From positions 382 through 64,381 of the forward strand of contig JALGVT010000005.1 of NCBI GenBank assembly GCA_025774555.1: 64,000 bases of DNA, written 5' to 3'. The stretch is from a candidate division LCP-89 bacterium. GTDB taxonomy: Bacteria > Electryoneota > B3-LCP. A program made the translations under genes and the position numbers. Below are positions 538 to 46,357 of the stretch, piece by piece (position 1 is the stretch's first letter; each line of letters starts with the position of its first letter). Under the pieces are notes generated by a model. That model saw only the letters and a list, made by a program, of their open reading frames with translations, had not been told where the DNA came from and did not search any database.

Positions 538-568
538 AATAATTATCGCGAACATTACGGGAAAAAGC

Positions 569-4152: not shown

Positions 4153-4156
4153 AATA

Positions 4157-5392: not shown

Positions 5393-5564
5393 TACACATT
5401 TAAATTATGACCGATATGGTGATTTGAATTTCTACTGACAGATCATGGTATTTTTTGTAATGTTTAGAAATTAAAATATTTATCTTGACTTTTCGGAATA
5501 ATTAGTTTAATTTAGTATAATGGATAGAAGTACTGATACAGTGATTTAATCGAGGCATCCATCG

Positions 5565-7709: not shown

Positions 7710-7802
7710 AGCCGAATACGGAATCAGAGTTAAAAGGGGACAGTGGAGAAGCCATTGCCTCCTTTTCTCTCCAAACACCAAAAAACAATAAAGAGGTCAA
7801 CC

Positions 7803-9833: not shown

Positions 9834-9856
9834 CGCAGACTGATACTTTGAAGCAT

Positions 9857-9890
9857 GAGAGCCACGTTAAAGCGTGGCTCTCTTTTCTCT
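9857..9890 (+). terminator. Rho-independent terminator after the T9SS cargo gene
   Basis: Perfect 10-bp stem GAGAGCCACG / CGTGGCTCTC with loop TTAAAG, followed by TTTTCTCTT. Confidence 0.8.
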
Positions 9891-9952
9891 TGAAAACAAG
9901 ACTTTTAAAGATTAGATTATATAACCGAAATCATAACCGTCAAAATAACATT

Positions 9953-13800: not shown

Positions 13801-13845
13801 CTAACTTTATAATCGGCAGGATTCTTTAAAACTTTAGTTGTGAAC

Positions 13846-15111: not shown

Positions 15112-15113
15112 TA

Positions 15114-15530
15114 ATGAAGAATGAATTGATAAAACTCACAGCAGATAAAGTGACGATTTCTGAGCAGGGCAGAGCGGCTGCTCACAAATGGAAACCCGGC
15201 GATAAGCCGTTTGTGCAGTTTATAGCTGAGAGCGAAGAGCAGTTTGACAAAACTGAGCGAGTTAAAGACGATCAGGCTTGGTGGAGTGTTGATCCCGTTA
15301 AAGGAATTGATGAAAATGATCGTGATGCCAATCTCCCTGCTGATAAAAGAAAAGCAGGAATAGTTACTGCCGACAAGAAATTGACGTTGGATATTGGCAG
15401 CCGTCTGGAAATAGAGAACCTTCAAAACTTACGCGGACTAATTATCAGGAGCACTACGAAAGTTAATATGAGTAATGGAGACCCCACCTGTGAAACGAAC
15501 TGGGAGGTATTCCCAGAAGATTTGAAATAG
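15114..15530 (+). CDS. Hypothetical protein (about 138 aa)
   Basis: ATG 3 nt after the upstream stop, which suggests translational coupling. No recognisable domain. Confidence 0.45.
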   Translation: MKNELIKLTADKVTISEQGRAAAHKWKPGDKPFVQFIAESEEQFDKTERVKDDQAWWSVDPVKGIDENDRDANLPADKRKAGIVTADKKLTLDIGSRLEIENLQNLRGLIIRSTTKVNMSNGDPTCETNWEVFPEDLK

Positions 15531-15555
15531 ATTTGTTGATGAGAAGGGCTAAGAT

Positions 15556-15750
15556 ATGAGTATAAGCATAAAAAATCCTATTCAGGTGCAGGACCAGTTC
15601 CGACCTACAGGATCAAAGATGAAGTTAGATGAGTTTTTCAACCCGCTAAGCGAATCTTTGCAACGGATAGGAGAGATACGCGAAGAGAGAAGGGGCGAAA
15701 ACTTATCGATGCCTGATGAACAATATAAGCGAATAGATATTAAAGTGTAA
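15556..15750 (+). CDS. Hypothetical small protein (64 aa)
   Basis: AAGGG ribosome-binding site upstream (aagggctaagatATG). Part of the same-strand cluster. Confidence 0.35.
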   Translation: MSISIKNPIQVQDQFRPTGSKMKLDEFFNPLSESLQRIGEIREERRGENLSMPDEQYKRIDIKV

Positions 15751-15770
15751 GGAGGATATTATGGCTGATG

Positions 15771-15920
15771 GTATTGAAAAAATAGGGAACAATCATCCAC
15801 CACCGGAAGCAAGACGCTCCAACGTGGAAGATAAGTACAGAGAATTAGAAGAACTTGACAGACGTCGAGAAACGCTAGCCGAAGAGGGTAAAGGCGAGAC
15901 TATCGACGTGTACGCATAAA
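15771..15920 (+). CDS. Hypothetical small protein (49 aa), absent from the ORF track
   Basis: Perfect Shine-Dalgarno AAGGAGG 7 nt upstream of the ATG (aaggaggatattATGgctgat). Product MADGIEKIGNNHPPPEARR..TIDVYA. Confidence 0.3.
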
Positions 15921-15956
15921 ACAATGTAATACCAATAAAAAAAGCAGGGGGTTATT

Positions 15957-16298
15957 ATGGTAGATCAGACAAGGTTGCCAGGGTATATCGCTGGTAAATT
16001 GACAAACCAGCTGCAGAATGCTCAGAACGCTGCACAGCGCGAAAAATTGATGGATGAAATCGCCAATTCACAGCAGGTGGAGCATCTGAAGGAGGTCGTA
16101 AATCCTGACAGACTCAGTGAGAAAATGCAGAGTGTTACAAAGAATGAGAGAATCCAGGATTTCGTGCATATCTCACCCGAAGGCAGGGAAAAGCAGCAAG
16201 CTCAGGAAACTACCCAGACCAATCCGCAAGGACCGGGGAGCGAATCAAATCCGCATCCCGAACTGGGCGCTCTCGGCAATCTAAATCCGGAGGCATAA
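15957..16298 (+). CDS. Hypothetical protein (113 aa), Gln-rich
   Basis: GGGGG ribosome-binding site upstream. Ends 6 bp before hemW. Confidence 0.45.
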   Translation: MVDQTRLPGYIAGKLTNQLQNAQNAAQREKLMDEIANSQQVEHLKEVVNPDRLSEKMQSVTKNERIQDFVHISPEGREKQQAQETTQTNPQGPGSESNPHPELGALGNLNPEA

Positions 16299-16304
16299 TA
16301 TAAT

Positions 16305-17444
16305 TTGTTAGACCCGATAAGCCTCTACGTTCACGTTCCGTTCTGTCAACGGCGCTGTCCTTACTGTGCTTTCTATTCAGTTGAAAGCGCCCGCGAAGAG
16401 GAAATCACAAGCTACCCGCGTCTACTCCTTAAAGAATTGCAATTGATAAAGGAGTCCTGGCGCGGGTCTTCAATTGGGACTATATACTTCGGTGGCGGAA
16501 CGCCCTCAATTCTGCCGCCCAGCCTGGTAGAGAGTGTAATTAGCGCAGCTAAAGAAGCATTTCAGTTTGAAGATGATATAGAAGTGACTCTGGAATGCAA
16601 TCCGGGCACAGTCGATGCTGGCAAGATTGAAGCCTTCATATCTGCGGGAATCAATCGTCTGAGTATCGGCATTCAAGCGCTCAATGATGATAGACTTGGA
16701 TTTCTGGGACGGATTCATGATATGAATCAAGCAGTGGAGACGTTGAAAATAGCGACTGAAGCAGCTGGAGTCGATGTTTCAGCAGATCTCATGGCAGGTA
16801 CGCCTCTGGATACCAGAGAGAGCTGGTATAGAGAACTAGAAAAGCTCTTACCGTTTCGTCCCGATTCATTGTCCTTTTACAGTTTAACCGTCGAAGAAGG
16901 CACAGATCTGGCGTTACGATTAGAAAAAAACGAGAAAATATGCCTTGGATCAGACGAAGTAGTTGATCTGATGATGTATATCGGAGATCGATTGGCAGAC
17001 GCAGGATACCGTCACTACGAAGTGTCAAACTGGGCTTTGCCCGGACATGAATGCCGCCATAATTTGCATTATTGGCGGCGCGGAAGATATATCGGTTTAG
17101 GTCCATCGGCACACTCATTCGATGGAAAACGGCGCAGTTGGAATAAGCCGGATGTTACAAGCTATAGAGAAGCGCTGAATAATGGGAATCTCCCGCCGTC
17201 TGAATATGAAGTCTTGAGTGATGCAGAGGTGATGTCCGAGTGGGTTTATTTAGCGCTGCGAGTCGCTGATGGGCTTGATTTTGGAGAGTATCAGGAAATG
17301 TTCGGAGAAGTACCCTCGAGTTGGAAATCGTTACTTGAGAAAACTGCTGCATCAGGATACGGCGATTTCGATGGAGTGAGATTTAAACCAAACGACAGGG
17401 GTTTGCTGTTAGCGGATGAAATATCGGCGAGGATACTTGGATAG
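16305..17444 (+). CDS. hemW: Radical SAM heme chaperone HemW (HemN-like, oxygen-independent coproporphyrinogen III oxidase family)
   Basis: N-terminal radical SAM motif HVPFCQRRCPYCAFY (CxxxCxxC), GGGTPS motif, HemN C-terminal domain. Confidence 0.85.
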   Translation: MLDPISLYVHVPFCQRRCPYCAFYSVESAREEEITSYPRLLLKELQLIKESWRGSSIGTIYFGGGTPSILPPSLVESVISAAKEAFQFEDDIEVTLECNPGTVDAGKIEAFISAGINRLSIGIQALNDDRLGFLGRIHDMNQAVETLKIATEAAGVDVSADLMAGTPLDTRESWYRELEKLLPFRPDSLSFYSLTVEEGTDLALRLEKNEKICLGSDEVVDLMMYIGDRLADAGYRHYEVSNWALPGHECRHNLHYWRRGRYIGLGPSAHSFDGKRRSWNKPDVTSYREALNNGNLPPSEYEVLSDAEVMSEWVYLALRVADGLDFGEYQEMFGEVPSSWKSLLEKTAASGYGDFDGVRFKPNDRGLLLADEISARILG

Positions 17445-17447
17445 AAA

Positions 17448-17478
17448 AGGCAGGCGCTTACGCCTGCCTTTTCTGTTT
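17448..17478. terminator. Bidirectional rho-independent terminator between the convergent hemW and TPR-SLH genes
   Basis: AAAAGGCAGGCG-CTTA-CGCCTGCCTTTTCTGTTT: 9-bp GC-rich stem, A-tract on the 5' side and T-tract on the 3' side. Confidence 0.75.
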
Positions 17479-17493
17479 AAACTCTATTTTAGC

Positions 17494-18693
17494 TTACCAT
17501 TTCAGGGCGTTCATGATATCACGAACAAACAGCAGAGCATCCGGACCTGAGACATTTTCAGATGGTCGAAAATATCCCGTCATTTTATCCAGATCCATGA
17601 TATTGCGCTCGACAGCGAGCATGGCAGCGCCATAGAACGGATGATCGGTTCGCATGTCGCGAATATGCGACTCTTTTTCGCCTATATATTTTGAGAAGAT
17701 ACTTTCGTCGCGCGTTACCATGTAGATAAGTCGCTGCACCGCGCCGGCGAATTCGATTCTGGTTACAGGGTCATCCGGATAGTATTTATGATCCTGAGCT
17801 ATTTCGAAAATACCGGTGGCTACGAAATCACGTATCATTGATTCCGCCCAGTGACCGTCTATATCGAGAATTTCATTTCGATCTGGACCAGTTGCAGACG
17901 TCTGGAATTCAAGAGGATCCTCAGCCTTGAATGACAGGTCAGGAGCAGTGCTCCCGGCTTCGCGCCTCTCAATTCTTTCCACGACGTTCAATTCTTCAAT
18001 GAACAGGACAGCCATGTCTGCGCGGTTGATTTCATCGACGAGAGCAATTTTCTTACCCCACTTCGTGCCAGGTTGAGCCCGCACGATCTTGTGGACGCTC
18101 TCCATGGCTTCACCAGCTTTTTCAGACCATAAGCCGTTGATGTCGATGGCATTTCTAAGCATATCCTCTGAGCTTCTGAAACTGAAAGCCTGTTTGTATG
18201 CCAGACCCATGTAGTAATATGCTTCATCGCTGCGCGGATCGATCTTCAATGCTTTGCTCAAGCCTTTTTCACAATCCTTGATCCAGTTATCATCTTTCTG
18301 CATAATCGCATAGCAACGGATGTATGCAATCCAGACGCGGATATCTGAATCATCCAATCCCTTGGCATCGCCCAGGTGATCTTCAGCGCTTTTAAAATAT
18401 TCTTTCCGTATCTTGGATTTCGGATCTTTTATCTCTGATCCCAGTGCCGCATAGACCATACTCAAACCCGCATGAGCTGGAGCGAAATCCTTGTCGAGCA
18501 GCAGGGCATCTTTAAAGCGTGCTTCAGCCGCATCTAGATCGCCCGCATCGAACTTGCGAATACCCTGGTTGTAATGCGATTCGGGTGTATCCAGCAGCCC
18601 TTCTGCGGCACGTTGTTTAGGTCCGCAGCCGTTTATACAGAAAACTGCCGCGATAAAGGTTATCGTTAAAATAACGGGAATTATTCTTTTCAT
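17494..18693 (-). CDS. Lipoprotein with N-terminal TPR repeats and C-terminal SLH-like (S-layer homology) domains
   Basis: Start at the Met with GGAGGA upstream (MKRIIPVILTITFIAAVFCINGCGPKQ: lipobox with Cys). TPR region. The C-terminus matches the SLH pattern (..ILDIDGHWAESMIRDFVATGIFE..DPVTRIEFAGAVQRLI..). Confidence 0.6.
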   Translation of the reverse strand: MKRIIPVILTITFIAAVFCINGCGPKQRAAEGLLDTPESHYNQGIRKFDAGDLDAAEARFKDALLLDKDFAPAHAGLSMVYAALGSEIKDPKSKIRKEYFKSAEDHLGDAKGLDDSDIRVWIAYIRCYAIMQKDDNWIKDCEKGLSKALKIDPRSDEAYYYMGLAYKQAFSFRSSEDMLRNAIDINGLWSEKAGEAMESVHKIVRAQPGTKWGKKIALVDEINRADMAVLFIEELNVVERIERREAGSTAPDLSFKAEDPLEFQTSATGPDRNEILDIDGHWAESMIRDFVATGIFEIAQDHKYYPDDPVTRIEFAGAVQRLIYMVTRDESIFSKYIGEKESHIRDMRTDHPFYGAAMLAVERNIMDLDKMTGYFRPSENVSGPDALLFVRDIMNALKW

Positions 18694-18740
18694 ATACTCC
18701 TCCAATTGCAAATAAGCAATTAATTAAGCAGAATTACGGT

Positions 18741-19547
18741 TTAGTCGAGGATGACGATGACGCGGCATTTCTGCAGGAAGTTCAGGTTCTCCTTCATGCT
18801 GTGCAGAAGTTCAGCATCCTGATTGGAAATGACGACGTCGGCGCGATTCGGTCCTTCTGACTTTAATCCTTTCACAACCAGAGGTTTATCGGTGACTCTG
18901 TCATTCTTTGCCGCGGCTTCCATATCCTTTTCATAGCCGATCATACCGTATTGAATAGCCCACTCTTTGCTGACATAACTTGAACCGTACACTTCTTGAC
19001 CATCTTCATTCAGAACTCGTGGCGAAAGCGCAGGTCGGGCTCCCAAACCGGTTGCATCTATGATAAGACCGGTATAGACAACTCCTGATATAGCCGAAGA
19101 GAGTGGCTGTGCTCCCCCCATTTTCGCAGGCAAAACAGCTTCAAGGAAAGGACCATCAAGACTCATCTCAATGGTTACTTCGATTGAACCGTCATCGTAA
19201 TATCTTGGATCACCCACCTGCCGGAAATTCTGAGCAATCCCTTCAACTCTGGTCCGCACTACGTCACTTGACAACATTGAGTTTTTGACAGTGGTTTCAG
19301 ACGACATGGCGATACCTTGGATGACCTCAAGCATGTTTCGTAATGCGTCCATTTTAGCCGCACGAATAATGCCGGCTCTACCTCCAGGTCCGCCCGGCGC
19401 ACCGATTCCAGTGGCAGAGATCGTACGCTGAGTAAAATCTACAGATCCATTCATACCAATCTGTTGAACTACACCTTGTGCCAATCCGATCGTTGTCCAG
19501 AGCAGTAGTAATAAACAAACAGATGCTGCAACGGTGGATATGCGCAT
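18741..19547 (-). CDS. Periplasmic LPP20/FlgP-like family protein
   Basis: Start at MRISTVAASVCLLLLLW (AAGGAGG upstream). Motif ..ISATGIGAPGGPGGRAGIIRAAKMDALRNMLEVIQGI.. resembles the LPP20 lipoprotein family. Confidence 0.45.
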   Translation of the reverse strand: MRISTVAASVCLLLLLWTTIGLAQGVVQQIGMNGSVDFTQRTISATGIGAPGGPGGRAGIIRAAKMDALRNMLEVIQGIAMSSETTVKNSMLSSDVVRTRVEGIAQNFRQVGDPRYYDDGSIEVTIEMSLDGPFLEAVLPAKMGGAQPLSSAISGVVYTGLIIDATGLGARPALSPRVLNEDGQEVYGSSYVSKEWAIQYGMIGYEKDMEAAAKNDRVTDKPLVVKGLKSEGPNRADVVISNQDAELLHSMKENLNFLQKCRVIVILD

Positions 19548-19701
19548 AAGTACCTCCTTATGCATTTTATTTTTATTTTAGTATCAAACTCTAAACGGCG
19601 AAATGAGCTAAGATTAACCCATTTCGAAGTACTCTAAGAAATTTAATCCGTACTGCTGATTAATTCAAGTGAAAAGAGCGCTATTTTCAGCGATGTGTCT
19701 G

Positions 19702-20562
19702 CTATTTCTGATCGACCGCCTTGTCCTTTTCCAAGTTCCAGCGAACCCATTCAGTCTGTTCATCGGGATCTTCAGCTGAGAAGTCACCTGATGACAGCAG
19801 TTGACCTTTGCTGTCTATCCTGATCTCCTGCATGTTCTTTATAATATAGTACCACACCTCGAAGGTAACCCGCCGTGGTCCCTGGATCTGCTGGGGACCC
19901 TGAATCTGCTTAATATGAGGCAGTTCCTGAGGAACAAGCTCCTTTATATCGGCAGTATTTGTGATTTTTACCTCACCTTTATAGACCTTGAGAACAGTGG
20001 AGGAATCATCACCTACACTGATACGAAAACGCGTCCCGGTGATGGCTGCGCCAGCGACTGGTGTATTAACGTCAAAAGAGACCTCCTCTTTTTCTTCAGA
20101 CACCATTGCCCAGATATCACCCTTTACTACGTCTATTTGAGTTTCATCGAGTCCCTCTTTGGTCTCTTCATATAATTTGACTATGTCGATGGTCGTTAAT
20201 GGCGCCATGCGGATAATGTTTAGTTCTTTCAGGGTGAGTTCCGCACGTGATTCTCGAAGGGTGCGCACTTTGTCACCGCTGATAATTTCAGAACCTAAAA
20301 CTGCGCTCATCCAATTATCAGATGTCACCGGTAGTTTTCTGGCTCGCCCGTCCAGTTCCGTAACCTTTCCACGGTGATGAATATCCTCATCCTGAACGTC
20401 TGCGAAAAGCTCCTCGTCCGCCTTTACTCCAACATGCAGAAAAACTACAAGATTGCACAGAAATAGAAAAGCTATTACACGGTTGCGTCTCAGTAATCCG
20501 CTTCTTTTTACAGGCATCGCTTGTGCCTCCCGAATTATAGGTTCTATTTTCTTAAACCACAA
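19702..20562 (-). CDS. Membrane-anchored FecR-domain protein
   Basis: One N-terminal TM helix (VIAFLFLCNLVVFLHV). Periplasmic region with FecR-like pattern (..VKGDIWAMV..FDVNTPVAGAAITGTRFRISVGDDSSTVLKVYKGEVKI..). Confidence 0.5.
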   Translation of the reverse strand: MWFKKIEPIIREAQAMPVKRSGLLRRNRVIAFLFLCNLVVFLHVGVKADEELFADVQDEDIHHRGKVTELDGRARKLPVTSDNWMSAVLGSEIISGDKVRTLRESRAELTLKELNIIRMAPLTTIDIVKLYEETKEGLDETQIDVVKGDIWAMVSEEKEEVSFDVNTPVAGAAITGTRFRISVGDDSSTVLKVYKGEVKITNTADIKELVPQELPHIKQIQGPQQIQGPRRVTFEVWYYIIKNMQEIRIDSKGQLLSSGDFSAEDPDEQTEWVRWNLEKDKAVDQK

Positions 20563-20607
20563 TATTTAAATATTTCTCCCCAAAAGCAAGAAATATGTAG
20601 CTTAATT

Positions 20608-23600
20608 TCAATTAATATGAGATGCACCGGTTAGATTTCCCGTCGGTTCACCTGTCAGGATAAATGCAGCCCAATAAGAGGGATGCGCGTTAATGCGGTC
20701 ACGTATATGCCGTTGTGCACTCTGCATGGATTCTGCAGGAGAAAGCCCAGCCCTCAAGTTTCGATAGAACCGCTTGACGAGCACAGCCGTGGCGAGATCG
20801 TCAACTTTCCAGAGAGAGGAAAAGACGCGCGGAGCTCCCGCATAAATAAACGCCCGGTTAAATCCTATAATCTCTTCGCCGCCCGATATCCCTCCTAATC
20901 CGCTTTCACAAGCAGAAAGAAGAACTAAAGAGCAGTGATCGAGGTGAAGATCGAAAATTTCAAACATCTCAAGCCGCCCGTCCTGTTCATCATCCGGCGC
21001 TAAGAAAAGACTTGAAAATGTTGGATTCTTTGAATTGAACTCACCGTGACAGGCTAAATGAACCACGCTTGCGCTGTCGCTGAAATTCACAAGTTTGGAT
21101 TCCTTTGCCTGTTCACCAAGATAGATATTCACATCTTTATAGACATATTTGATTGCGCTAACTTCTTTTTCACCGAAAAACAGACTCTCCAGCGGCAGAC
21201 CTGTGTCAGGATTACCAAGCGCTAGAATTTTACCAATTTCATTATGAGATCTTTCTTCAACTCTGTTTCTACAGAATGAAAATATATTTGCTGAAGGCAC
21301 ATAATTGAGAGTGAAGTGGTCTATTATATAGCTGCCATCCGGTTCAATCAACAAGGCAAAAGGAAGATAGAAGAGAGAACTTGTCGGCGCTATGATCAGG
21401 TGACTTTTATCATTCAGACGTTTCACAATAGGCGCTATCAATATTCTATATAGTCTTATACATTCTTCTTGAACAGAGAGTTTCTTCTTCAATCTCATAC
21501 GCAGATTTTCAACCATAGTCTTCAGAGAATCACCTTTAATAGCAACTTTTGCAGCTTTTATCCCTTCACGATCCAGCGTGAATATCACTAATGCCTCATC
21601 TAACAGGTAGTACTCAAGCAGTATTTCCTCGTTTTTCAACATCGTTTGGATCTGCGTCGAAGGCGCTGGAGTAACAGAGGTAATGTCTCTGTAACCGGGA
21701 TGACTGTTCTCTATCCGTTCGAGCAGGTAGCGGTAATCATTCTCTAATGAATCGATTATTGTAGTATAGTTGGCAAAAAGCGCGTCCTCTTCCGGTGTTC
21801 TGACGGCGCCTTTCGTTTTGAGATATTCTACTTCTTTGCGAATTCCTGCCAATTTCGTGGATATAGCATTTACTTTATCCTGCATTTCGACTGAAAGCCC
21901 GGCGCTGTGGTCGATGCTGCGATTCTGAATCATATCTAAAAAGGTTCGAGAGCGCGATCTTTCCACAACATCGAGAGCGCCAAATGTATTATCCTCATTT
22001 AAAAGAATGCTGACAGCCAGCCTGTACACCTGACCTTTATTCTCCATGAAGCCGGTCTGCAAACCCTCTACGGCGATAGAAGCACGCGTTTTCTCAATCT
22101 GCTCCATGGCGCTGTAAAGAGATACCAATGCTTCTTCGTTTTTTCTATTTTTTATGAATGCTTCAGCACGTGCCAGCTCAATGCGCCATAAGAGGTCTTC
22201 TATGTTATTGTCTTCTGCTATTCTTCTAGCGAGATATAAATTGGAAATCGCCTCTTTAATAGCGCCATTAGCTATTTCAATAAGCCCCATTCCGAGAAAA
22301 GTTCTCGCGTGTATTCTTTGATCGGTAACCTGCGGAAGGATGTTTTTAACAGTTTTAAGCGCTTTCCTGGCTGAGTCTGCCTGATCTGTTTGAATATACG
22401 CATTGCCGAGATTAAGCAGTGAATACGCCATGCCGCGTATTGAATTAAGCTCTTTATCGATTTTATATGTCCGCCTGAAACGGATAATTGCCTTATCAAC
22501 CTCGCCGGATGAGAGTTCTATAAGACCTATGTTCTTTTCAATCTGCGATCTGCTCCTGTAATCACCTGTGGTGATAGCTCCTTCTAATGCGTGCTTGGCT
22601 TTTTTCAATGCCCTCTCGGCGTCTCCTAAGCTCAGATAAATAAGAGCTTCCGTATTTTCCGCAAGATAGACGTATTGATTTAATCCGAGTTCTGAGAATT
22701 GCTCACTCGCGATACGTATTCTGTCAAGTCCTTCCTGAAATCTTCCCTGTTTCCAGTAAAGTCCAGCGATATACTGATGCGACAGAGCAGTCGTCAAAGA
22801 ATTCTCCTGACCTTCAAGTTCAATCGCCTTACTCTGCATTCTTAGTGAGTTTTCATAGTCTGTCATGCCTTCGTAAGCTAAACCAAGGTGCTGATACAAT
22901 TCTGGCGGTATTGCTAGAGCATGTCCTGACGCTTCTTCCAGATTAGGAATATTATCAAGAATATCCTCGAGGAAACGGGAAGCCTTATAATAATCCTCCC
23001 TTATCAGCATCAGACGACAAAGATAGACACTGCTTATAATATAGGGTTCATATTCACCCCAGTCATAATATAGGTCCCGCGCTCTGGATATAGCAGTTTC
23101 AGCAGCATTATAATCTTTAAGTTTCTCATGGTATGTCGCAGTTATCTGGTCGTCAGAAGCCGCCCGCAATTCGTCTCCACGAACAATTGCCATACTGCGA
23201 GCCTTTGCACGCGCACCAATTGCGTTTGCAGTGCTGTCTAGGTTGTAGTAATATACCGAAAGGTTGCGGTATCCAGTCTCGACCAATTTCAGGTCTCTTT
23301 CTGCCCCGGCAATATCTATCAATATAGTCTGTGATTCGATAGCTTTTCCCCAAAAAGAAGCGCCGCGTGCCGCCTTGATTCGGAGCAGATGCAGTTTTTT
23401 GATGGAAGCCGCATCTTCTGTCTCTTCAGCCATGGCAAGCGCTGAATTATAGTACCGCAAAGCCCACTCGGCATCACCTTTCTGTAAATTATAGTTGCCC
23501 TTGAGAACGGTTGATGTGAAGTTCTGTTCTACGAATTCCTGTCGCTGAAAATGATCTAATCCACCGCTCCCATAATATTTAAAGCCAGAGAGTGCTTCAT

Positions 23601-26600
23601 CTAAAAATGAATCATTAGATTCCAGAGCGTCTAAAGCGTTATAATAAGCCTCTCCTGGAGAATTCGTAACCTTCTCTTCTATAAACACTTCGATGAAATG
23701 TTCGAGGTGGTCATCAGTGATATTCTCCGGTAAAATAATAATACTTGATACGCCTGTATAGAGCAAGCTCCTGATTAGAACTGTTTCGTCATAGATACTG
23801 CCCTTGATAAACAGTACATCTGCATTCGTGCTGATATTAAACAGTTCTGAAATCGGTATCTGTAAGTTGTTATCTTCATAGATAAGCTGGTCTAAGGGAT
23901 TGGAGACATTGTTTTTATCAATTGTAAGGTATATCATCCCCGCGTTCTCTATCGCGTCGATAAAATCCTCGCGGCTTTGTATTTCTATCTTATCAAATTG
24001 CGAAAGTTGCTCCTGATTCACTACATTTATGCGCTTACCTTGCCCGATTGATTGTTTCCCATTTAAAAAGACAATACTTTGAATGTCTGGAAGCATGTAT
24101 AGAGGTGTTTGATCACTGCCAACGGACTTGAGCCAGATACTTTGGACGGGGAGTTTAGACCATTCACCGGGCAGTATTAAGAATACCCTTTCACAATCCT
24201 GAAATCTTGATTGCTTTGATGCAAATACAGCTTGCAGTATATCTTCCGGGCTGCCATGTAGTCTGAGGCTGTCAACGTCCAGAGTGCGGTCATCCAATTG
24301 GATTAGATAGAGTTGTTTCACAGCCGACGTTATTTGCAATAGCAGATCACCAGACTGCAGGCAATTCATAATAGTATCTGGATCAAACGTAGGCATAGAA
24401 AACAATGATGCAAATTCCGGATCTTCTGTCGTTACTTTCTGCATGGTAGAGAGATATTCATCTTCTATATCGCTTAATTGCTCCCGTGCTTCTTCAAGCT
24501 CATCAATATCAGGTTTGGTTTCGGATTCAAATAGCGCTACTTGCTGTCTTGATTTGTTCAGTTTTCTGCGTAAGTAAGGAATGACGCCTCCGCCTCTGCC
24601 CCAAATAAACTTGCGGCGCTCGAATTTGACTGGGAACATACGGCTGCGTATCGCAGAAATCAATGTAAGGTTAGACCGTTGCTGCGCAATTTCGAGGACA
24701 CGTACTTTGTCCCCGACATTGAAAGCGTTGACAAGCGCTGATTCGAACATTATATTGGCTTCGATATCGGATTGAGTAATTGCGCCAGTTTCATCTTTGT
24801 TGGGCGGACGGTTTGACCAAGCGTCGATAGCCAGATCAAACCATTCATCGGCTGAATGAGATCCCACGATCAAGCTGATATCATTCGATAAGGACGTCCG
24901 TAATTGCGTGCTGCAAGATGTTATTCTGCCCAACCTCCAGAAAACACGCCACAAATATCTGATGTCGCCGATCCGTTCGGCTGTCCTCATCCCTTCAACT
25001 AATACTTTAGCGCTTTCTGAATAATCCTGCAAAGTGTATAGAAAATCTGATAGATCCAGACTAAGCAAAATCTCATCAGCAGGATGATTGAGACGTCTTG
25101 ATTCGTTTATACCGCTCTCAAAAACCCAGATTGCTTCAGCCTGGAGGTCGATTATTCTGAACAGGTCGATTTCGCTTGATTCGGGAACGTTGTTAGATGC
25201 CTTCAGGCATAATCTGCCATAAAGTCGATAGAGCCTAAGACGCTCATTAGTAAATCCGATTTTATCTGGACCGAACTTATCTATCTCCATTTTCAGCAGG
25301 GTTAGAAGCGTTTCGGCGTTAAAGGGTTGGTCATGATCTAATATCAGCAGACTGCTTAATAACTTCTGATCAGGGATTTCCGCATCATCGTCAAGTGGAT
25401 CAAGAGACTGATAAAAACGGCGTTGTATCGAATTTTTGAGGTCAGCTACGTCTGAAACATTTTCTGTTCGATTGACTGCTTCGATAATAAAAACCCAGAT
25501 ATCATCAGGATAACCGATGTTATAATGCTTAAACCATGTCATCTCGTCAGTTATATCAGCCTTGTTTATGGCATCTGAGGATGAACGCGAGAGTTCTAAG
25601 GAGGCTATGTTCAGCAGCGCTGAAAGCTGTCCTGATCTATATCCGTGACGATGACAGAGATCGTATGATCTGATAAAACATCGTTTAGATTTGACTAAAC
25701 GATGATTATTCCAGAAATAATTCCCTAATATATTCCAGAGGATAGCCTCTCCTTCGGGATCATCTCTGTTGATGGTGATCGCAAGACGCTCTGATGCTTC
25801 CTGTATAGCTTTGGTTGGATCCTTAGAACGATAATAGACGTCCTCTGCAATAGAGTGATTAAGAAGAATCTCATCCTTTTGAGTGAGACCTATCGCTGAC
25901 ATAGGAGAACCCGTGCCTAAATAACCGAAGTTCATAATTGGTATCGGAATGCCCAATATTTCAAGCACAAGTGGATTATAAAATTCAACTGTTGGAATAT
26001 CTGCGTTATCGGGAAGAGATTCTAATGCGTTGTCGGTTAAAAGCAGAGCATTCTCATCGTCCCCCATGTTTAACGCATTCAGCGCCATGTTTTCAAGCCA
26101 CAGACTCTGCGGGACATTCAGTCCTTCACGATCTGCTAATATCTGCGCCTGCCGGTAATATGAATTAGACAACTCCTCGTCCCTAATGACTTGATGTAAT
26201 TCAGCCAGTCGCAACAGGACGCGTAGTTCACCTTGAATCTGTTTGAGGTTGTGATAAAGTTCGAGTGATCGGCTGTAACTCGCCAATGCAATGTCGTTCT
26301 TGCCTATAATCGAGGCAGCCTGACCCATCTTCTCGCGTATATTAGCTTCCTGCTGTAATGAAGTAAAACTCGAGTCCCATTTTATCTTCGCGATGTAAGC
26401 GGTCAGCGAACGATGATAACCGAATTCACCCAGATTGAAATAATTGTTACCGAGGTTCAGATACAGTAAAGCCTCAAGTTCTGGATTTGTAGTCTCGTCA
26501 TTTATTGAGATGCCGAGTTGAAGCGCTTCGATTGCTTTCTCATAGCCCTGGAATGGGGGAGAAGCGCCTCTGAAGGTTAGTAATCTTCCCATGCTGTTCA

Positions 26601-29043
26601 CAGCCGAGCTCAAATTATGAACTATTTTCTTGAAGAAATTACCAGCAGTTTTCGATTGACTACTATTACGCTTTTCTTGCAATTCATAATTGTAGCTCAA
26701 AGTAGTATAGCCGTAAACCAGGTCTGATTCCAATGCAATCGCCGATTGAATAAGCTCGTTAGACTCGATAATATCAGCGGAGTTACCTTCTCCAGAATAA
26801 GATAGACACAAACCGAGAGCGTACATATTGGCTGCATTATCCGGCTCTTTCTCAAGCAGTTCCCGGTATTCTTGAGTTACCTCCTTTAGGTGGTTTAGAG
26901 ACATTGCGGAGGCAATTCTGCCGCGGTGCAATCTGACGTCATTGGGTGAGAGTCTCAGCGCTTTTCTAAAATTAACTTCAGCCAGTTCCCAATCGGATTG
27001 GTGAAGCAACTGTTCTGCCCGCTCAGTCAGCATCGATATTCTCAGCAGCCGAGCTTTGCGAACGTAATAGCTGTTCTTGAGGTCTTTAAAGAGGGCTTCT
27101 ACCTCTTCGAGGTGATTTTGAGCCAGGAGGTTCTCACCCATCTGATTTTCAAGTTCGGCTGACTCTATTAATGATTCCGCATAAAGAGACCTGATATACG
27201 AGTGTGGGTGCCTGATAGCATATCCTCGAATCCTTTCCCATTCGCTGAGAGCGATCTCTGTTTCGCCGCGTTCAGCAAAGATATCAGCGATTTTCTTCTG
27301 AGCTGCGGCTCCAAGCGCAGGGATTTCGGGATATCTTACGATGATGTTCTGCAACCCAGCTAAGGGATCATCACTTCCGACCTGTAGAGCAACAACATTC
27401 TCAATCGCTTTTTCCGTCGGAATTATGTTGTCTGAGAAATCTTTGATTTCTCGCAGGTAAGTATCCAATGCTTCACTTTTACTTCCGAAGCTGAAGTAAA
27501 TTGAAGCTATTCTCAACAGTGATTCAGCGGCATAATCACCTATTAAAACATAATCTGCCACTATTTGGTTATAAATATCAAGCGCCTGTTCAATATTGCC
27601 GGTTTGTTCGTGGTTTGCCGCAATCAAAAACAGGGCGCGAGCGGAAGACTCTGGATATTGTCCGGAATGATCGAAAATAGTTGTCAGGTTTGATATTAAT
27701 GAAGATGGATTTTCGCAGACGAACTTGCCATCATATTGAAAGGAACCGCTATGCACCTGAATCTGGTAATCTATTCGAGCTTGATTTATTACGGCAGTCT
27801 GTTCATCATATTGACGCGGAAGCCTCTTTAGAAAAGTAAGGGCACGCGAACCTTCGCCTGATTTATTCAATAACCTGGCTGATTCGAGCATCGATTTTGC
27901 GCCAAGCTCGCGCGCTTGAGGATGGTCAATTCTGACTCTTTCAAACGCTAATAGTGTCGCCAATAACTCTTCCCGCAATAACGGGCGTCCAATGATTTCT
28001 GCCTCCCTACCTATCGAAAGAGCGAAATTGAAACATGCCTCCGCTGTAGGTGCTCGTGGGACAGGACCCTCTGCAGGACCTTTCCATAAATCCATGCTGC
28101 CGCTTTTGTCGCTTGCGTGGTAAATATTGCCATCGCTCGCCCAGCAGGAATACGTCTCTGAGGCGTCACCAAGTGAGATAGCCCGCGCCACCGTGTTTGA
28201 ATCCACCTGGTTAAAACGGTAGAGAAACTGACCATCTATCGGTGTCAACAGTCCATCAAGATTTAGGTCTCTGTTGACTAAAACGGCACAGAAAGAATTT
28301 CCTGATGGAGACCAGCAGGGAGAAGAGGCAGGGAAAGAGCTTTCATAGACGATTTCCCATTTAGGCTGCGGTTCCTTCAAATCCTCTAAATGTAGAAGGC
28401 AGATATCACCACCGTAATCCTCAGCGGGGACCTTTATACAGATAATGTCATTATTAACAGGTGAAAAATCGGGTTGGATAAACCCATGTGGAGTCAGGAA
28501 TGTGCTTTTCTTCTTTGACAGGTTGAGCAGTTTTATTCTGCCCTGCACGCCTGCGCCATCTTGATACGCGATATATTTACCATTTTTAGAGAATGAGGGA
28601 TTGCTCTGATGTCCTGCTTCGTGGATAACAGTTTTTACGCGCAAAGCGCGCGGGGATTCATTTCGTAAGGTTATATTCAGTATGTAAAGATCGCCCTCAG
28701 GATCATCGCGCATAGACACAAAACAGATACGCTTTCCATCAGGAGACCATTCGGGATTGAAATCATCTGCAGGATGAGAAGTCAGCGGGACAGGCACACC
28801 TCCGCCTGTTTTGCGAATCCAGATGTCATAGTTGTCATTGCGGGTTGAAGCGTAGAGCAGCCAATTCCCATCAGGCGATATCGCGGGATCAATTTCAGAT
28901 CCCAAGTCGGCTGTTAAGGGTTGAGAATAGTGTATCGCAAGGGATTTGGGTATTCTGTTAGCTGGCTGAGGTTCCGCCTGTATTTGAGGTAATAATCCGC
29001 TGAGGATGAATAATACTGCCGTTATAGGCAAATAGCGGTGCAT
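20608..29043 (-). CDS. Giant secreted protein (2811 aa): signal peptide, TolB-like PD40 beta-propeller, very long TPR-repeat region, C-terminal CHAT (caspase-like) protease domain
   Basis: Uninterrupted 8.4-kb ORF. Signal peptide MHRYLPITAVLFILSGLLPQIQA. PD40 repeats (SPDGNWLLYASTRNDNYDIWI, SPDGKRICFVSMRDDPEGDLYIL). Dozens of TPR-like helices. CHAT hallmarks near the C-terminus (..SHLIIAPTSSLFYLPFALL.., VVHLACHGEF, LVLLSACESG, VDDLATAVLVKRFY). Confidence 0.85.
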   Translation of the reverse strand: MHRYLPITAVLFILSGLLPQIQAEPQPANRIPKSLAIHYSQPLTADLGSEIDPAISPDGNWLLYASTRNDNYDIWIRKTGGGVPVPLTSHPADDFNPEWSPDGKRICFVSMRDDPEGDLYILNITLRNESPRALRVKTVIHEAGHQSNPSFSKNGKYIAYQDGAGVQGRIKLLNLSKKKSTFLTPHGFIQPDFSPVNNDIICIKVPAEDYGGDICLLHLEDLKEPQPKWEIVYESSFPASSPCWSPSGNSFCAVLVNRDLNLDGLLTPIDGQFLYRFNQVDSNTVARAISLGDASETYSCWASDGNIYHASDKSGSMDLWKGPAEGPVPRAPTAEACFNFALSIGREAEIIGRPLLREELLATLLAFERVRIDHPQARELGAKSMLESARLLNKSGEGSRALTFLKRLPRQYDEQTAVINQARIDYQIQVHSGSFQYDGKFVCENPSSLISNLTTIFDHSGQYPESSARALFLIAANHEQTGNIEQALDIYNQIVADYVLIGDYAAESLLRIASIYFSFGSKSEALDTYLREIKDFSDNIIPTEKAIENVVALQVGSDDPLAGLQNIIVRYPEIPALGAAAQKKIADIFAERGETEIALSEWERIRGYAIRHPHSYIRSLYAESLIESAELENQMGENLLAQNHLEEVEALFKDLKNSYYVRKARLLRISMLTERAEQLLHQSDWELAEVNFRKALRLSPNDVRLHRGRIASAMSLNHLKEVTQEYRELLEKEPDNAANMYALGLCLSYSGEGNSADIIESNELIQSAIALESDLVYGYTTLSYNYELQEKRNSSQSKTAGNFFKKIVHNLSSAVNSMGRLLTFRGASPPFQGYEKAIEALQLGISINDETTNPELEALLYLNLGNNYFNLGEFGYHRSLTAYIAKIKWDSSFTSLQQEANIREKMGQAASIIGKNDIALASYSRSLELYHNLKQIQGELRVLLRLAELHQVIRDEELSNSYYRQAQILADREGLNVPQSLWLENMALNALNMGDDENALLLTDNALESLPDNADIPTVEFYNPLVLEILGIPIPIMNFGYLGTGSPMSAIGLTQKDEILLNHSIAEDVYYRSKDPTKAIQEASERLAITINRDDPEGEAILWNILGNYFWNNHRLVKSKRCFIRSYDLCHRHGYRSGQLSALLNIASLELSRSSSDAINKADITDEMTWFKHYNIGYPDDIWVFIIEAVNRTENVSDVADLKNSIQRRFYQSLDPLDDDAEIPDQKLLSSLLILDHDQPFNAETLLTLLKMEIDKFGPDKIGFTNERLRLYRLYGRLCLKASNNVPESSEIDLFRIIDLQAEAIWVFESGINESRRLNHPADEILLSLDLSDFLYTLQDYSESAKVLVEGMRTAERIGDIRYLWRVFWRLGRITSCSTQLRTSLSNDISLIVGSHSADEWFDLAIDAWSNRPPNKDETGAITQSDIEANIMFESALVNAFNVGDKVRVLEIAQQRSNLTLISAIRSRMFPVKFERRKFIWGRGGGVIPYLRRKLNKSRQQVALFESETKPDIDELEEAREQLSDIEDEYLSTMQKVTTEDPEFASLFSMPTFDPDTIMNCLQSGDLLLQITSAVKQLYLIQLDDRTLDVDSLRLHGSPEDILQAVFASKQSRFQDCERVFLILPGEWSKLPVQSIWLKSVGSDQTPLYMLPDIQSIVFLNGKQSIGQGKRINVVNQEQLSQFDKIEIQSREDFIDAIENAGMIYLTIDKNNVSNPLDQLIYEDNNLQIPISELFNISTNADVLFIKGSIYDETVLIRSLLYTGVSSIIILPENITDDHLEHFIEVFIEEKVTNSPGEAYYNALDALESNDSFLDEALSGFKYYGSGGLDHFQRQEFVEQNFTSTVLKGNYNLQKGDAEWALRYYNSALAMAEETEDAASIKKLHLLRIKAARGASFWGKAIESQTILIDIAGAERDLKLVETGYRNLSVYYYNLDSTANAIGARAKARSMAIVRGDELRAASDDQITATYHEKLKDYNAAETAISRARDLYYDWGEYEPYIISSVYLCRLMLIREDYYKASRFLEDILDNIPNLEEASGHALAIPPELYQHLGLAYEGMTDYENSLRMQSKAIELEGQENSLTTALSHQYIAGLYWKQGRFQEGLDRIRIASEQFSELGLNQYVYLAENTEALIYLSLGDAERALKKAKHALEGAITTGDYRSRSQIEKNIGLIELSSGEVDKAIIRFRRTYKIDKELNSIRGMAYSLLNLGNAYIQTDQADSARKALKTVKNILPQVTDQRIHARTFLGMGLIEIANGAIKEAISNLYLARRIAEDNNIEDLLWRIELARAEAFIKNRKNEEALVSLYSAMEQIEKTRASIAVEGLQTGFMENKGQVYRLAVSILLNEDNTFGALDVVERSRSRTFLDMIQNRSIDHSAGLSVEMQDKVNAISTKLAGIRKEVEYLKTKGAVRTPEEDALFANYTTIIDSLENDYRYLLERIENSHPGYRDITSVTPAPSTQIQTMLKNEEILLEYYLLDEALVIFTLDREGIKAAKVAIKGDSLKTMVENLRMRLKKKLSVQEECIRLYRILIAPIVKRLNDKSHLIIAPTSSLFYLPFALLIEPDGSYIIDHFTLNYVPSANIFSFCRNRVEERSHNEIGKILALGNPDTGLPLESLFFGEKEVSAIKYVYKDVNIYLGEQAKESKLVNFSDSASVVHLACHGEFNSKNPTFSSLFLAPDDEQDGRLEMFEIFDLHLDHCSLVLLSACESGLGGISGGEEIIGFNRAFIYAGAPRVFSSLWKVDDLATAVLVKRFYRNLRAGLSPAESMQSAQRHIRDRINAHPSYWAAFILTGEPTGNLTGASHIN

Positions 29044-29057
29044 ATCTGGTGCTTATA

Positions 29058-29609
29058 TCACTTGTTAATCCAACTGCCATCTTCTTTTTGGATCATGCTG
29101 CCGGGTGGTGAAGCGTCCCTGTTCATTTGCGCGAAAACTCTGGCGATTGCATCTGGATCCATAGGATTGACTGCCGAGTTGATCTCAACGATCCTGCGCA
29201 TGATGATCTCGCGGTCTCTATTCTCTTCGACGATGATCTTATTGACAAGTTCGCTGTACTCGAAATCTTCGTTATATCTGGATGTCGGAAGGATCGTCAG
29301 CAATCCTTCAATGTTCTCTCCAGTAACGCCGTCTTTTTTAAAATCTTCTATGTCATCAGCGTTGAACTTCCTATTCGCGAAAGCTTCCAGAACAATGCGT
29401 CTGCTTTCAGGGATAGTAATATCCGGCGATGAAGTCGAGCGGGCTGATGATATCATCCAGGCATCTTCTTCGATGGTGCGATAGGTACCCAAAATCTGCT
29501 TTTCAATTGCAGTTCTTTCGCTGGTGAAGGATACTTCAGGGGTTTTAATGGTGCAGCTAATCAAAAGAAGGAGGCTCACTATACCTGCCATAATGCGTAG
29601 ATGAATCAT
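29058..29609 (-). CDS. Small lipoprotein, DUF1318 (YdbL)-like
   Basis: Lipoprotein signal (IVSLLLLISCTIK). The C-terminal ..PGSMIQKEDGSWINK matches the DUF1318 terminal motif. Overlaps the folD stop by 4 bp. Confidence 0.45.
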   Translation of the reverse strand: MIHLRIMAGIVSLLLLISCTIKTPEVSFTSERTAIEKQILGTYRTIEEDAWMISSARSTSSPDITIPESRRIVLEAFANRKFNADDIEDFKKDGVTGENIEGLLTILPTSRYNEDFEYSELVNKIIVEENRDREIIMRRIVEINSAVNPMDPDAIARVFAQMNRDASPPGSMIQKEDGSWINK

Positions 29610-30502
29610 TGTATAATACCTGCTTTTCGTTTTGCTGCTATTAGTGTGTTCTTCAATAGCATGGCAATAGTCATCGGTCCCACTCCGCCGGGTACAGGGG
29701 TTATCGCAGAAGCGATCTTGCAGGCGGAATCGAAGTGAACGTCTCCCACGAGGCGGTAGCCTCGCTTATCCTCCGATTCGGGAACATTGACGCGATTGAC
29801 TCCAACATCTATGACGATACACCCCGGTTTTAACTGATCACCGTGGATGAATTCGGGAGAACCGATGGCTGCAACTACAATATCAGCCTGGCGTAGAAAT
29901 TGCGAAATATCACGCGTCCTCGAATGACATAGCGTAACCGTTGCATTGCCACCCTCACTTTTACGCGACAGGAGAGTTGCCAGAGGGCGTCCCACGATAT
30001 TACTCCTACCGACGATGACAACGTGTTTCCCAGATGGATCTATATCGCTTCTACGCATTAATTCTATCACACCGGCTGGTGTACATGGCATGAAAGACTC
30101 GCGACCCGAAGTCAGGCTGCCGACGTTATATGGCGTAAAGCAATCCACGTCCTTTACCGGATCGACGGATTCAATAATTTCCACTTCATTCAGGTGTCCG
30201 GGTAGAGGCAGTTGAATGAGAAAACCGTGTATGTCCGGGTTGACGTTGAATCTATTAACAAGGTCAAGCAGCTCTTCCTGTGTCGTTTCAGTGGGACGTC
30301 TTTCAGTCAGCGAATAGAAACCAACTCGTTCGCACGCTTTTCCTTTCATGCGCACATAGGTCTGCGATGCAGGATCATCTCCGACAAGAATGAATCCGAG
30401 GCCCGGGGTGATGCCTTTTTTTTGTAATTGAGCCGTTTCCTCTGCTATTTCGTTTTTAATTAGATCAGAAACTGCCTTACCATCTATAATCTTCGCTGAC
30501 AT
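29606..30502 (-). CDS. folD: Bifunctional methylenetetrahydrofolate dehydrogenase / methenyl-THF cyclohydrolase
   Basis: MSAKIIDGKAVSD..LGFILVGDDPASQTYVRMKGKACERVGF..., NAD(P)-binding GRSNIVGRP, conserved PGGVGPMT. Confidence 0.9.
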   Translation of the reverse strand: MSAKIIDGKAVSDLIKNEIAEETAQLQKKGITPGLGFILVGDDPASQTYVRMKGKACERVGFYSLTERRPTETTQEELLDLVNRFNVNPDIHGFLIQLPLPGHLNEVEIIESVDPVKDVDCFTPYNVGSLTSGRESFMPCTPAGVIELMRRSDIDPSGKHVVIVGRSNIVGRPLATLLSRKSEGGNATVTLCHSRTRDISQFLRQADIVVAAIGSPEFIHGDQLKPGCIVIDVGVNRVNVPESEDKRGYRLVGDVHFDSACKIASAITPVPGGVGPMTIAMLLKNTLIAAKRKAGIIQ

Positions 30503-40946: not shown

Positions 40947-40964
40947 AATATCGTATATTTGTGA

Positions 40965-43628: not shown

Positions 43629-43663
43629 ATTATTACTGCAAATGATTGATTTGCAATGGATTG

Positions 43664-46333: not shown

Positions 46334-46357
46334 CTTACGATCATCTATTTAGTGTGA

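Follow-up and report, generated by a model that had tools for sequence, protein, structure and literature searches.

The 64,000-nucleotide stretch of a candidate division LCP-89 genome analyzed here (assembly GCA_025774555.1, contig JALGVT010000005.1; hereafter, the window) carries four co-directional genes, which we call g1 to g4, behind folD and a gene for a DUF1318 (YdbL-like) lipoprotein. g1 encodes a giant exported protein with a caspase-like CHAT domain, g2 a FecR-domain protein, g3 an exported relative of flagellar FlgP and of Tp0624 from Treponema pallidum, and g4 a lipoprotein that joins TPR repeats to an SLH domain (Table 1). An earlier note on this DNA had described the four as a single tightly spaced module, and the open reading frame (ORF) map agrees with that layout, with intergenic gaps of 45, 136, and 29 bp between g1, g2, g3, and g4; the DUF1318 gene lies a further 14 bp upstream of g1. 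Our own reading, which we hold to be probable, is that the window contains two separate cell-envelope modules that are neighbors only in the LCP-89 lineage, and that these serve envelope architecture or homeostasis rather than trans-envelope signaling or defense. It builds on gene order, domain content, export signals, phyletic patterns, and the loss of a catalytic dyad, from which we infer cellular roles, partners, and substrates.

In LCP-89, the six genes from folD to g4 are probably co-transcribed, ending at the hairpin that follows g4. The stop codon of folD shares 4 nt (29606-29609) with the start of the DUF1318 gene, so folD probably heads the unit. The same overlap and gene order recur at L167 (5410-5413), a locus from a distant LCP-89 relative, which suggests translational coupling of a housekeeping one-carbon enzyme to the envelope genes. 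The hairpin is near-perfect, is flanked by T runs on both strands, and looks like a bidirectional terminator. A terminator scan from folD to g4 revealed no strong terminator comparable to it between the genes, and a promoter scan was uninformative (24 sites versus 25 expected). Downstream of folD, all products carry export signals in a hydrophobicity and motif scan, as Sec signal peptides (g1 and g3), lipoboxes (g4 and the DUF1318 protein), or an N-terminal hydrophobic segment (g2).

Table 1. Positions, in window coordinates, of the genes and features of the folD-to-g4 locus.
Feature	Position	Strand	Basis or remark
folD	29606-30502	minus	Pfam THF_DHG_CYH and THF_DHG_CYH_C
DUF1318 (YdbL-like) lipoprotein gene, 183 aa	29058-29609	minus	Pfam
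g1, 2811 aa	20608-29043	minus	ORF call
g1 Sec signal peptide, residues 1-23, MHRYLPITAVLFILSGLLPQIQA, ending in IQA before EP	28975-29043	minus	Hydrophobicity scan and sequence
g1 PD40/TolB-like beta-propeller, about residues 40-330	28054-28926	minus	Pfam PD40, E=3.9e-25, 87.7 bits
g1 internal CHAT-like pseudo-protease domain, about residues 1595-1830	23554-24261	minus	hhalign
g1 C-terminal CHAT domain, residues 2528-2799	20647-21462	minus	Pfam CHAT, E=3e-66
g1 predicted catalytic dyad, H2666	21046-21048	minus	Codon checked
g1 predicted catalytic dyad, C2712	20908-20910	minus	Codon checked
g2, 286 aa	19702-20562	minus	ORF call
g2 FecR domain, residues 97-199	19966-20274	minus	PF04773, 50 bits versus a cut-off of 24
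g3, 274 aa	18741-19565	minus	ORF call
g3 D1, FlgP/LPP20-like, about residues 33-137	19155-19469	minus	
g3 D2, about residues 160-274, without a Pfam model	18744-19088	minus	
g4, 405 aa	17494-18711	minus	ORF call
g4 three-repeat SLH domain, about residues 225-405	17497-18039	minus	PF00395, 32.6 bits versus a cut-off of 20.8
Hairpin, apparent bidirectional terminator, 20-bp stem	17437-17480		Closes the unit; common to g4 and the convergent hemN-like gene

Homologs of g1 and g3 assign the window to candidate division LCP-89, close to KSB1 and Calditrichota within the FCB group. The division into two modules comes from the neighborhoods of the giant and of g3 in other genomes. The giant belongs to a family of proteins of about 2500-2900 aa, with PD40, TPR, and usually CHAT domains, found in LCP-89, Desulfobacteraceae, Nitrospinae, Nitrospirales, Spirochaetes, and Leptospira. 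Its neighborhoods were gathered through exact look-ups and through a metagenome scan with a 22-sequence alignment, which gave no close LCP-89 relatives. A DUF1318 gene lies directly upstream of the giant, on the same strand, in 15 loci and also in L167, L168, and L169, including one Nitrospirales and one Spirochaetes locus. The YdbL-like lipoprotein is thus a constant neighbor of the giant across at least five phyla, and this deeply conserved partner had been left outside the four-gene module of the earlier note. None of the 19 giant loci outside the LCP-89 clade (L004-L006, L087-L089, L091-L099, L102, L104, L119, and L134) has an adjacent FecR, g3, or g4 gene.

From the side of g3, a scan with an alignment of its family, at one genome per species, gave at least 449 stretches with a g3 relative. 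The best 80 loci were kept, and 79 of them (79 species) were analyzed, L008 being the same stretch as L001; mapping of their ORFs relied on profiles of the window proteins and of those at a single annotated Zhuqueibacterota locus. g4 adjoins or follows g3 in 65 of the 68 loci with room for it. Where at least 6.5 kb was available downstream (48 loci), FlgT_N-like, CsgG-like, and FecR genes were found in 38, 33, and 30 loci, respectively, and none of the three in six, namely four LCP-89-type loci and two (L015 and L042) that hold the g3-g4 pair only. The usual order is g3 - g4 - FlgT_N-like - CsgG-like (in one or two copies) - FecR, an order that lacks a CHAT gene. The giant CHAT gene and an upstream FecR gene were seen only in LCP-89-type loci (the window, L001, L009-L012, L014, and L167), where the order is folD - DUF1318 - giant - FecR - g3 - g4. 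Hence, the four-gene order is kept in LCP-89 and close relatives but is absent outside that clade. Further, g2 aligns full-length and colinearly with the FecR proteins of the widespread cluster (27-36% identity, E=1e-19 to 1e-33). With an unrelated FecR protein of Leptospira, g2 has just 69 residues in common. Given this match and the survey order, g2, g3, and g4 are together a trimmed, rearranged version of the widespread cluster, which we term module B, with the DUF1318 lipoprotein and g1 making up module A. Literature searches (CHAT with FecR and LPP20; LPP20, CsgG, FlgT, and FecR) returned no paper describing either gene cluster, in keeping with the earlier note's view that the combination is uncharacterized, and the cluster around the Tp0624 D1-D2 unit appears to be undescribed.

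Within module A, the giant runs from its signal peptide through a PD40 propeller, a TPR/helical array, a pseudo-CHAT domain, and a further TPR array to a C-terminal CHAT domain. The match to the CHAT model (PF12770) reaches 224.2 bits versus a cut-off of 24 and spans model positions 4-289 of 289, which bears out the earlier description of an exported CHAT protein of this length, and Pfam finds many TPR matches in between. The propeller also matches TIGR02800 TolB (E=3.5e-18, under its cut-off), with Tricorn_N matches in orthologs. The two-CHAT layout emerges from profile-profile comparison of alignment slices (hhalign), in which the internal domain matched the C-terminal CHAT profile over 235 columns with a probability of 99.8% and E=2e-27; here, the catalytic-position His is absent and a deletion replaces the Cys loop. 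The C-terminal domain, in contrast, is active-looking, with an intact His/Cys pair, and is predicted to be a peptidase. H2666 lies in HLACHG and C2712 in LSACESG (the cysteine of the LLSACESG motif singled out previously), and both columns are invariant in the 22-sequence alignment. Outside the signal peptide, we found no transmembrane helix in g1, its sole hydrophobic 19-mer sitting within the CHAT core, and no zinc anti-sigma domain. Nearly all of the listed giant-family members start with a signal peptide or lipobox, and two that begin within the propeller look truncated. A chimeric assembly of the giant ORF, a concern raised by the earlier note, is ruled out by orthologs in independent assemblies that align end-to-end (2732-2845 aa, 97-100% query coverage, 39-48% identity), and a protein identical to g1 is on record on an 83-kb contig.

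The catalytic dyad is conserved in most giant-family members and has been lost in several. In P0129 and P0130, the His is replaced by Gln and the Cys by Leu; in L010, the Cys is replaced by Phe; in L012, the His is replaced by Lys; and in the Spirochaete members, CHAT is missing entirely. Relatives without the dyad kept their synteny where flanks are known (L010, L012, and L167, which encodes P0130), and L167 retains the full folD-to-g4 order despite the dyad loss in its giant. Proteolysis is therefore dispensable for the association of g1 and its neighbors.

The earlier note had called an exported CHAT protein of this size unusual. The Myxococcus xanthus anti-sigma factor DdvA already has a periplasmic TPR-CHAT (PMC11506125), so export alone is not new for such a unit; the size stands apart, with DdvA reaching only 991 aa versus 2811. 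The two proteins share the periplasmic TPR-CHAT unit, the His-Cys dyad, and a separase/craspase-like architecture. However, DdvA crosses the membrane once, carries a zinc anti-sigma domain on the cytoplasmic side, and is paired with an ECF (extracytoplasmic function) sigma factor and a defense island, whereas g1 is exported and soluble, combines a TolB-like propeller with two CHAT-like domains, has no transmembrane or anti-sigma domain, and lies among housekeeping genes. In separase, a helical scaffold is followed by two caspase-like domains, one inactive and one active. g1 resembles separase and Csx29 in its long helical-repeat scaffold followed by a caspase-like domain, and separase in particular in its pair of inactive and active domains; two g1 orthologs carry a precomputed Peptidase_C50 match. 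Unlike g1, separase and Csx29 are cytoplasmic, far smaller, and regulated by securin or by RNA-guided Cas7-11, and g1 differs further from separase in the approximately 700 residues of TPR between its two caspase-like domains. The architecture of a double-CHAT giant with a TolB-like propeller appears to be undescribed.

These likenesses raise the possibility of an anti-phage or conflict system whose effector protease would be CHAT, along the lines of type III-E Craspase and other defense proteins of the TPR-CHAT kind. CHAT proteases do act in defense (Csx29), and g1 has a weak match to NCBIfam Csx29 (E=3.6e-6, 26 bits). That match falls far under the cut-off of 300, however, and PADLOC, with its models of anti-phage defense proteins, returned no defense match except a generic TPR model. 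No CRISPR, gRAMP, Cas, or other defense gene lies nearby, g1 is exported, and the locus is vertically conserved beside folD and hemN, outside any variable island and with uniform base composition. On the blank PADLOC result, the low Csx29 score, and the housekeeping context, we rejected a defense system, to which we attach only the slimmest of chances.

The other component of module A carries a lipobox (LISC19; Cys19), a conserved N-terminal extension with the motif SERTA(I/L)E(K/N)Q(I/V)LG.Y, and a DUF1318 domain at residues 84-183 (Pfam, 36.5 bits versus a cut-off of 27). Giant-linked homologs of this protein are lipoproteins of about 190 aa, of which 11/11 match Pfam DUF1318, and their profile matches the Escherichia coli YdbL structure 28oj_A (E=2.9e-4); a search of the PDB with the single sequence gave noise or TPR design proteins. 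In E. coli, YdbH-YnbE-YdbL is an AsmA-like intermembrane lipid bridge with a periplasmic modulator (PMC11126948, PMC13464000); YdbL, itself subject to degradation by DegP, binds to the lipoprotein YnbE and tunes formation of the YdbH-YnbE bridge (PMC13464000). Shared with this system is a genuine DUF1318/YdbL domain in the gene upstream of the giant and, outside LCP-89, a gene order that would mirror ydbH...ydbL, with DUF1318 following a large, weakly AsmA/YhdP/TamB-like protein. These large proteins (987-1330 aa; for example, L006 4350-7343, L169 2419-5382, and L096 5254-9237) give repeated sub-threshold matches to AsmA, DUF748, YhdP, and TamB, and the faint AsmA/YhdP/TamB signals at their N-termini suggest that they may be a divergent branch of AsmA-like bridges. 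That of Leptospira is assigned to the NCBIfam 'LIC_11026 family'; otherwise, hardly any family is assigned to them. Downstream of the giant, 8 loci outside LCP-89 have SH3 and M48 peptidase genes. The giant loci also differ from the E. coli system, in that the DUF1318 proteins are lipoproteins whose additional N-terminal half is conserved, no gene resembling YnbE was detected, the gene upstream of DUF1318 in the window is folD and not an AsmA-like gene, and E. coli has no giant PD40-TPR-CHAT protein. The notion that the N-terminal half of the DUF1318 lipoprotein is a fused YnbE was set aside as speculation, having Pfam support at E<=1 in 0/11 members. Literature searches found no paper on a DUF1318 link to a giant CHAT protein, and the cross-phylum linkage of the giant to a YdbL-like lipoprotein, and probably also to an AsmA-like protein and an M48 peptidase, appears to be undescribed.

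On account of its partners in other phyla, we place module A with outer-membrane biogenesis or quality control. g1 may act there as a periplasmic scaffold, with its caspase-like domain a regulated and dispensable add-on, as in separase, and the YdbL-like lipoprotein may be a chaperone-like modulator or a client of the giant. A protease-bearing neighbor of a YdbL-like gene is plausible, given that the periplasmic protease DegP controls YdbL levels. A more specific proposal, which we offer as no better than tentative, is that the giant is a periplasmic separase-like scaffold/protease and an unrecognized accessory of AsmA-like/YdbL bridges in several phyla. On this view, the giant would bind either the YdbL-like lipoprotein or some component of the bridge, and giants with an intact dyad would also cleave that target, much as DegP controls YdbL in E. 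coli; assembly of the bridge, or homeostasis of the outer membrane, would be controlled in this way. In LCP-89, the giant would also be wired to the FlgP-like, SLH-anchored tether discussed below.

Turning to module B, g2 is, judging from its sequence, a periplasmic FecR-domain protein, orthologous to the FecR of the g3/g4 cluster, and not an anti-sigma factor. Its orthologs, of 250-300 aa, have the same layout. The earlier note's single-pass FecR-domain protein stands insofar as there is a FecR domain and one hydrophobic segment, but the anti-sigma sense attached to it is misleading. Specifically, the sole hydrophobic segment, a signal or anchor, occupies residues 27-50 of the longest ORF, with at most 26 residues ahead of it (or 11, counted from M16), and no anti-sigma family match (Pfam, NCBIfam) or cytoplasmic sigma-binding domain was found. 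With no cytoplasmic domain and no ECF sigma factor nearby, g2 does not qualify as an anti-sigma factor. Its nearest NCBIfam models are the Leptospira FecR-domain envelope lipoproteins LipL45 and Lsa33, and g2 resembles stand-alone periplasmic FecR-domain proteins.

The same evidence bears on the signaling system that the earlier note had proposed, a trans-envelope proteolytic one akin to anti-sigma factor cascades, with the FecR protein as sensor of a periplasmic signal and the exported CHAT protease coupled to it. The idea has its attractions, as FecR domains form the periplasmic part of FecR-type anti-sigma factors, g2 has a Pfam match to that domain, only the 45-bp gap separates it from g1, and a periplasmic TPR-CHAT has been proposed to act in sigma-factor release in M. 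xanthus DdvA (PMC11506125). Apart from the FecR domain itself, however, none of the parts that define FecR/FecI signaling was found in the locus. The short stretch before the hydrophobic segment of g2 leaves no cytoplasmic sigma-binding domain; no ECF sigma gene (Sigma70_r2/Sigma70_r4) occurs among the annotated neighbors in the window, L001, or L167; and the only TonB-dependent receptor (40965-43628; Pfam CarboxypepD_reg, Plug, and barrel) lies 20 kb away and showed no signaling-extension family in the Pfam scan. Further, g2 is nearest to LipL45/Lsa33, its conserved partners are the g3, g4, FlgT_N-like, and CsgG-like genes rather than CHAT, and g1 has neither a transmembrane helix nor a zinc anti-sigma domain and has lost its dyad in relatives. 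With the anti-sigma domain, sigma factor, and transducer all missing, and with no co-conservation outside LCP-89, the signaling model is largely refuted, and we consider it very unlikely. More broadly, a FecR domain beside a protease should not be read as sigma-factor signaling unless an anti-sigma domain and a sigma factor are also found. L167 contains a second FecR-domain protein (239 aa), unrelated to g2 and in a separate context (1-4236, minus strand, divergent from folD), together with a CHASE2-guanylate cyclase, a 788-aa protein, and a 355-aa protein.

g3 has a Sec signal peptide that ends in GLA before QG, and its single cysteine (Cys17) lies within the hydrophobic core; as no lipobox is present, g3 is not a lipoprotein. 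The earlier assignment as an LPP20/FlgP-like periplasmic protein stands in part. g3 is exported, and its family profile recovers FlgP chains of solved flagellar motors (E=1e-10 to 1e-4), but it carries an extra D2 domain and reaches only 23.3 bits versus a cut-off of 25.9 for LPP20 (PF02169), a model to which many orthologs have a precomputed match. The other Pfam assignments made for the four genes (CHAT, PD40, TPR, FecR, and SLH) were borne out. D1 has an SHS2-like fold, in which about 40 additional residues follow the SHS2 helix before the next strand begins. Both domains of the D1-D2 unit of Tp0624 (PDB 5JIR; PMC5104382) are present in g3, colinear and with the same fold, and the protein stops after D2, without the OmpA-like D3 of Tp0624. 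D2 was described in Tp0624 as a new fold, with D1-D2 lacking the OmpA-like D3 in about 50 proteins (PMC5104382); our exhaustive profile search found at least 1393 D1-D2 sequence clusters at E<=1e-30. Among unusual architectures of the g3 family (P0265, P0273, and P0284), one protein of 1448 aa has six matched stretches, the best covering the FlgP-like half, and two others, of 791 and 1123 aa, carry the entire D1-D2 unit at the C-terminus.

g4 is predicted to be an outer-membrane lipoprotein with TPR repeats and a complete SLH domain, much as the earlier note had it. A lipobox (INGC29; Cys29) precedes TPR repeats at about residues 40-215, and the full three-repeat SLH fold follows. SLH repeats carry TRAE-type motifs, and in g4 the conserved motifs NRAD (R230, D232) and VTRIE (R318) occupy TRAE-type positions, a motif-level hint of putative binding to pyruvylated secondary wall polymer or to peptidoglycan. 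A pyruvyl transferase, needed for SLH ligands, was not found among the window ORFs scanned. Single-sequence PDB searches with g2 and with g4 gave only TPR design proteins or noise. Diderm SLH tethers of the outer membrane (OmpM or Slp type) join SLH to a beta-barrel porin; g4 shares with these the complete SLH fold and a membrane anchor but differs in joining SLH to a lipid anchor and TPR, and in always traveling with g3. With this fold and anchor, g4 could link the outer membrane to the wall. Tp0624 carries a divergent OmpA-like wall-binding D3 in the same chain as D1-D2, whereas here the SLH domain belongs to a second protein, the TPR lipoprotein of the adjacent gene, and the g3-g4 pair supplies in two chains the set of D1-D2 unit and wall-binding domain that Tp0624 holds in one. 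The fixed partnership with a TPR-SLH lipoprotein supports a wall-tethering role for the D1-D2 unit. The lipid-anchored g4 could hold the cell wall through its SLH domain, and module B may thus act as a tether or lattice that connects the outer membrane with the wall.

The FlgP likeness allows an alternative reading of module B as a flagellar or motility accessory, a FlgP/FlgT-like disk or collar with g4 as its TPR collar-like lipoprotein. FlgP, Lpp20, and FlgT are SHS2-fold lipoproteins of flagellar disks and H-rings (PMC12222027), and this family tends to build rings near the outer membrane. The N-terminal half of g3 is homologous to FlgP (E=1e-10 for the best of the flagellar motor chains), its extra residues sit where ring-forming FlgP and FlgT carry an insert (PMC12222027), a partner gene in other phyla has a FlgT_N domain, and g4 weakly matches the spirochaete collar protein FlcA. 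Against this, g3 is no lipoprotein, has the additional D2, and has no flagellar genes alongside. No flagellar family occurs among the recurrent neighbors of the 80 g3 loci, where the annotated ones are an AI-2E transporter, a CDP-alcohol phosphatidyltransferase, an M20 peptidase, and a protein with a type IX secretion system (T9SS) tail, with a DUF512 radical-SAM protein and a Der-type GTPase at L002. The window ORFs scanned likewise matched no flagellar family, the window encodes T9SS cargo and a PorV-like gene, and the g4 matches to FlcA and PilW are generic TPR matches far under cut-offs. A motility role thus seems improbable.

A closer competitor to the two-module reading is that, in LCP-89, the modules have fused into one machine, with the giant docking through its TPR arrays or propeller onto the g2-g3-g4 tether, and dyad-intact forms processing one of g2-g4 or the DUF1318 lipoprotein, again with no sigma signaling. 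The full order is present in every LCP-89-type locus with room for it (the window, L001, L009, L011, L012, L014, and L167) despite 39-48% identity among giants, gaps are short, and no strong terminator interrupts the genes. In addition, FecR has shifted from the 3' end of the widespread cluster to just after the giant, and FlgT_N and CsgG have gone from the vicinity, which resembles remodeling over chance. Yet the partners are never together beyond the LCP-89 clade, and synteny within a single phylum can be inherited without function. Four clade members have lost the dyad (P0129, P0130/L167, L010, and L012), of which the three with known flanks keep the order, and a weak stem just after g2 (19692-19679) could separate the transcripts. 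We regard a single machine as possible but unlikely, and continue to favor two separate modules.

Several observations weigh against that preference, or against parts of it. First, the modules stay adjacent across a deep clade, in which g1 falls to 39% identity and the g3 of L014 is only 55% identical, a persistence that could stem from a genuine functional tie between them in LCP-89, and the FlgT_N-like and CsgG-like genes are missing from the LCP-89 locus neighborhoods examined. Second, all of the matches behind the AsmA-like label are sub-threshold. The Desulfobacteraceae and Leptospira families upstream of DUF1318 align in hhalign over just the N-terminal 73 columns (33% probability, E=5e-4), BLASTP between them gave no match, and neither did their profile against PDB sequences; the label is provisional on these grounds. 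A Pfam scan of the 11 giant-linked DUF1318 members likewise found no YnbE-like partner. Finally, signal peptides were assigned from hydrophobicity and motif rather than by a trained predictor, and experimental data come from the distant relatives YdbL, Tp0624, FlgP, and DdvA.

The two modules touch on open questions in Gram-negative biology, namely how lipids are transported to the outer membrane and how that membrane is held to the wall. The mechanism of YdbL dates only from 2024-2026, and the association between the giant and a YdbL-like lipoprotein, to which genes for an AsmA-like protein and an M48 peptidase are often added in the vicinity, is concrete, testable, and invisible from E. coli. 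For its part, the Tp0624 D1-D2 unit gains a large family and a fixed partner in the TPR-SLH lipoprotein.

Elsewhere in the window, genes related to the T9SS are dense (36943-52762, 58859-61525, and also 7743-9833). Carriers of Por_Secre_tail comprise two S8 subtilases, a 1377-aa C25 gingipain-like peptidase, a CARDB protein, and an Omp28-like protein, and the PorV-like gene (36943-37944) adjoins a 1001-aa ORF without a Pfam match (37941-40946) and the TonB-dependent receptor. Beyond the terminator-like hairpin, three plus-strand ORFs of 423, 142, and 113 aa (13840-16298; families f10, f13, and f7), the first and last without a Pfam match, occur in the same order beside hemN in other LCP-89 loci, where they have no Pfam annotation. 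A response-regulator receiver domain is fused to a PglZ domain at 56256-57815. A block of polysaccharide and envelope biosynthesis genes at 569-11953 encodes a sulfatase-type enzyme, a phosphodiesterase, a GT4 glycosyltransferase, a Wzz/GNVR tyrosine-kinase-like protein, and a PMT_2-TPR protein.

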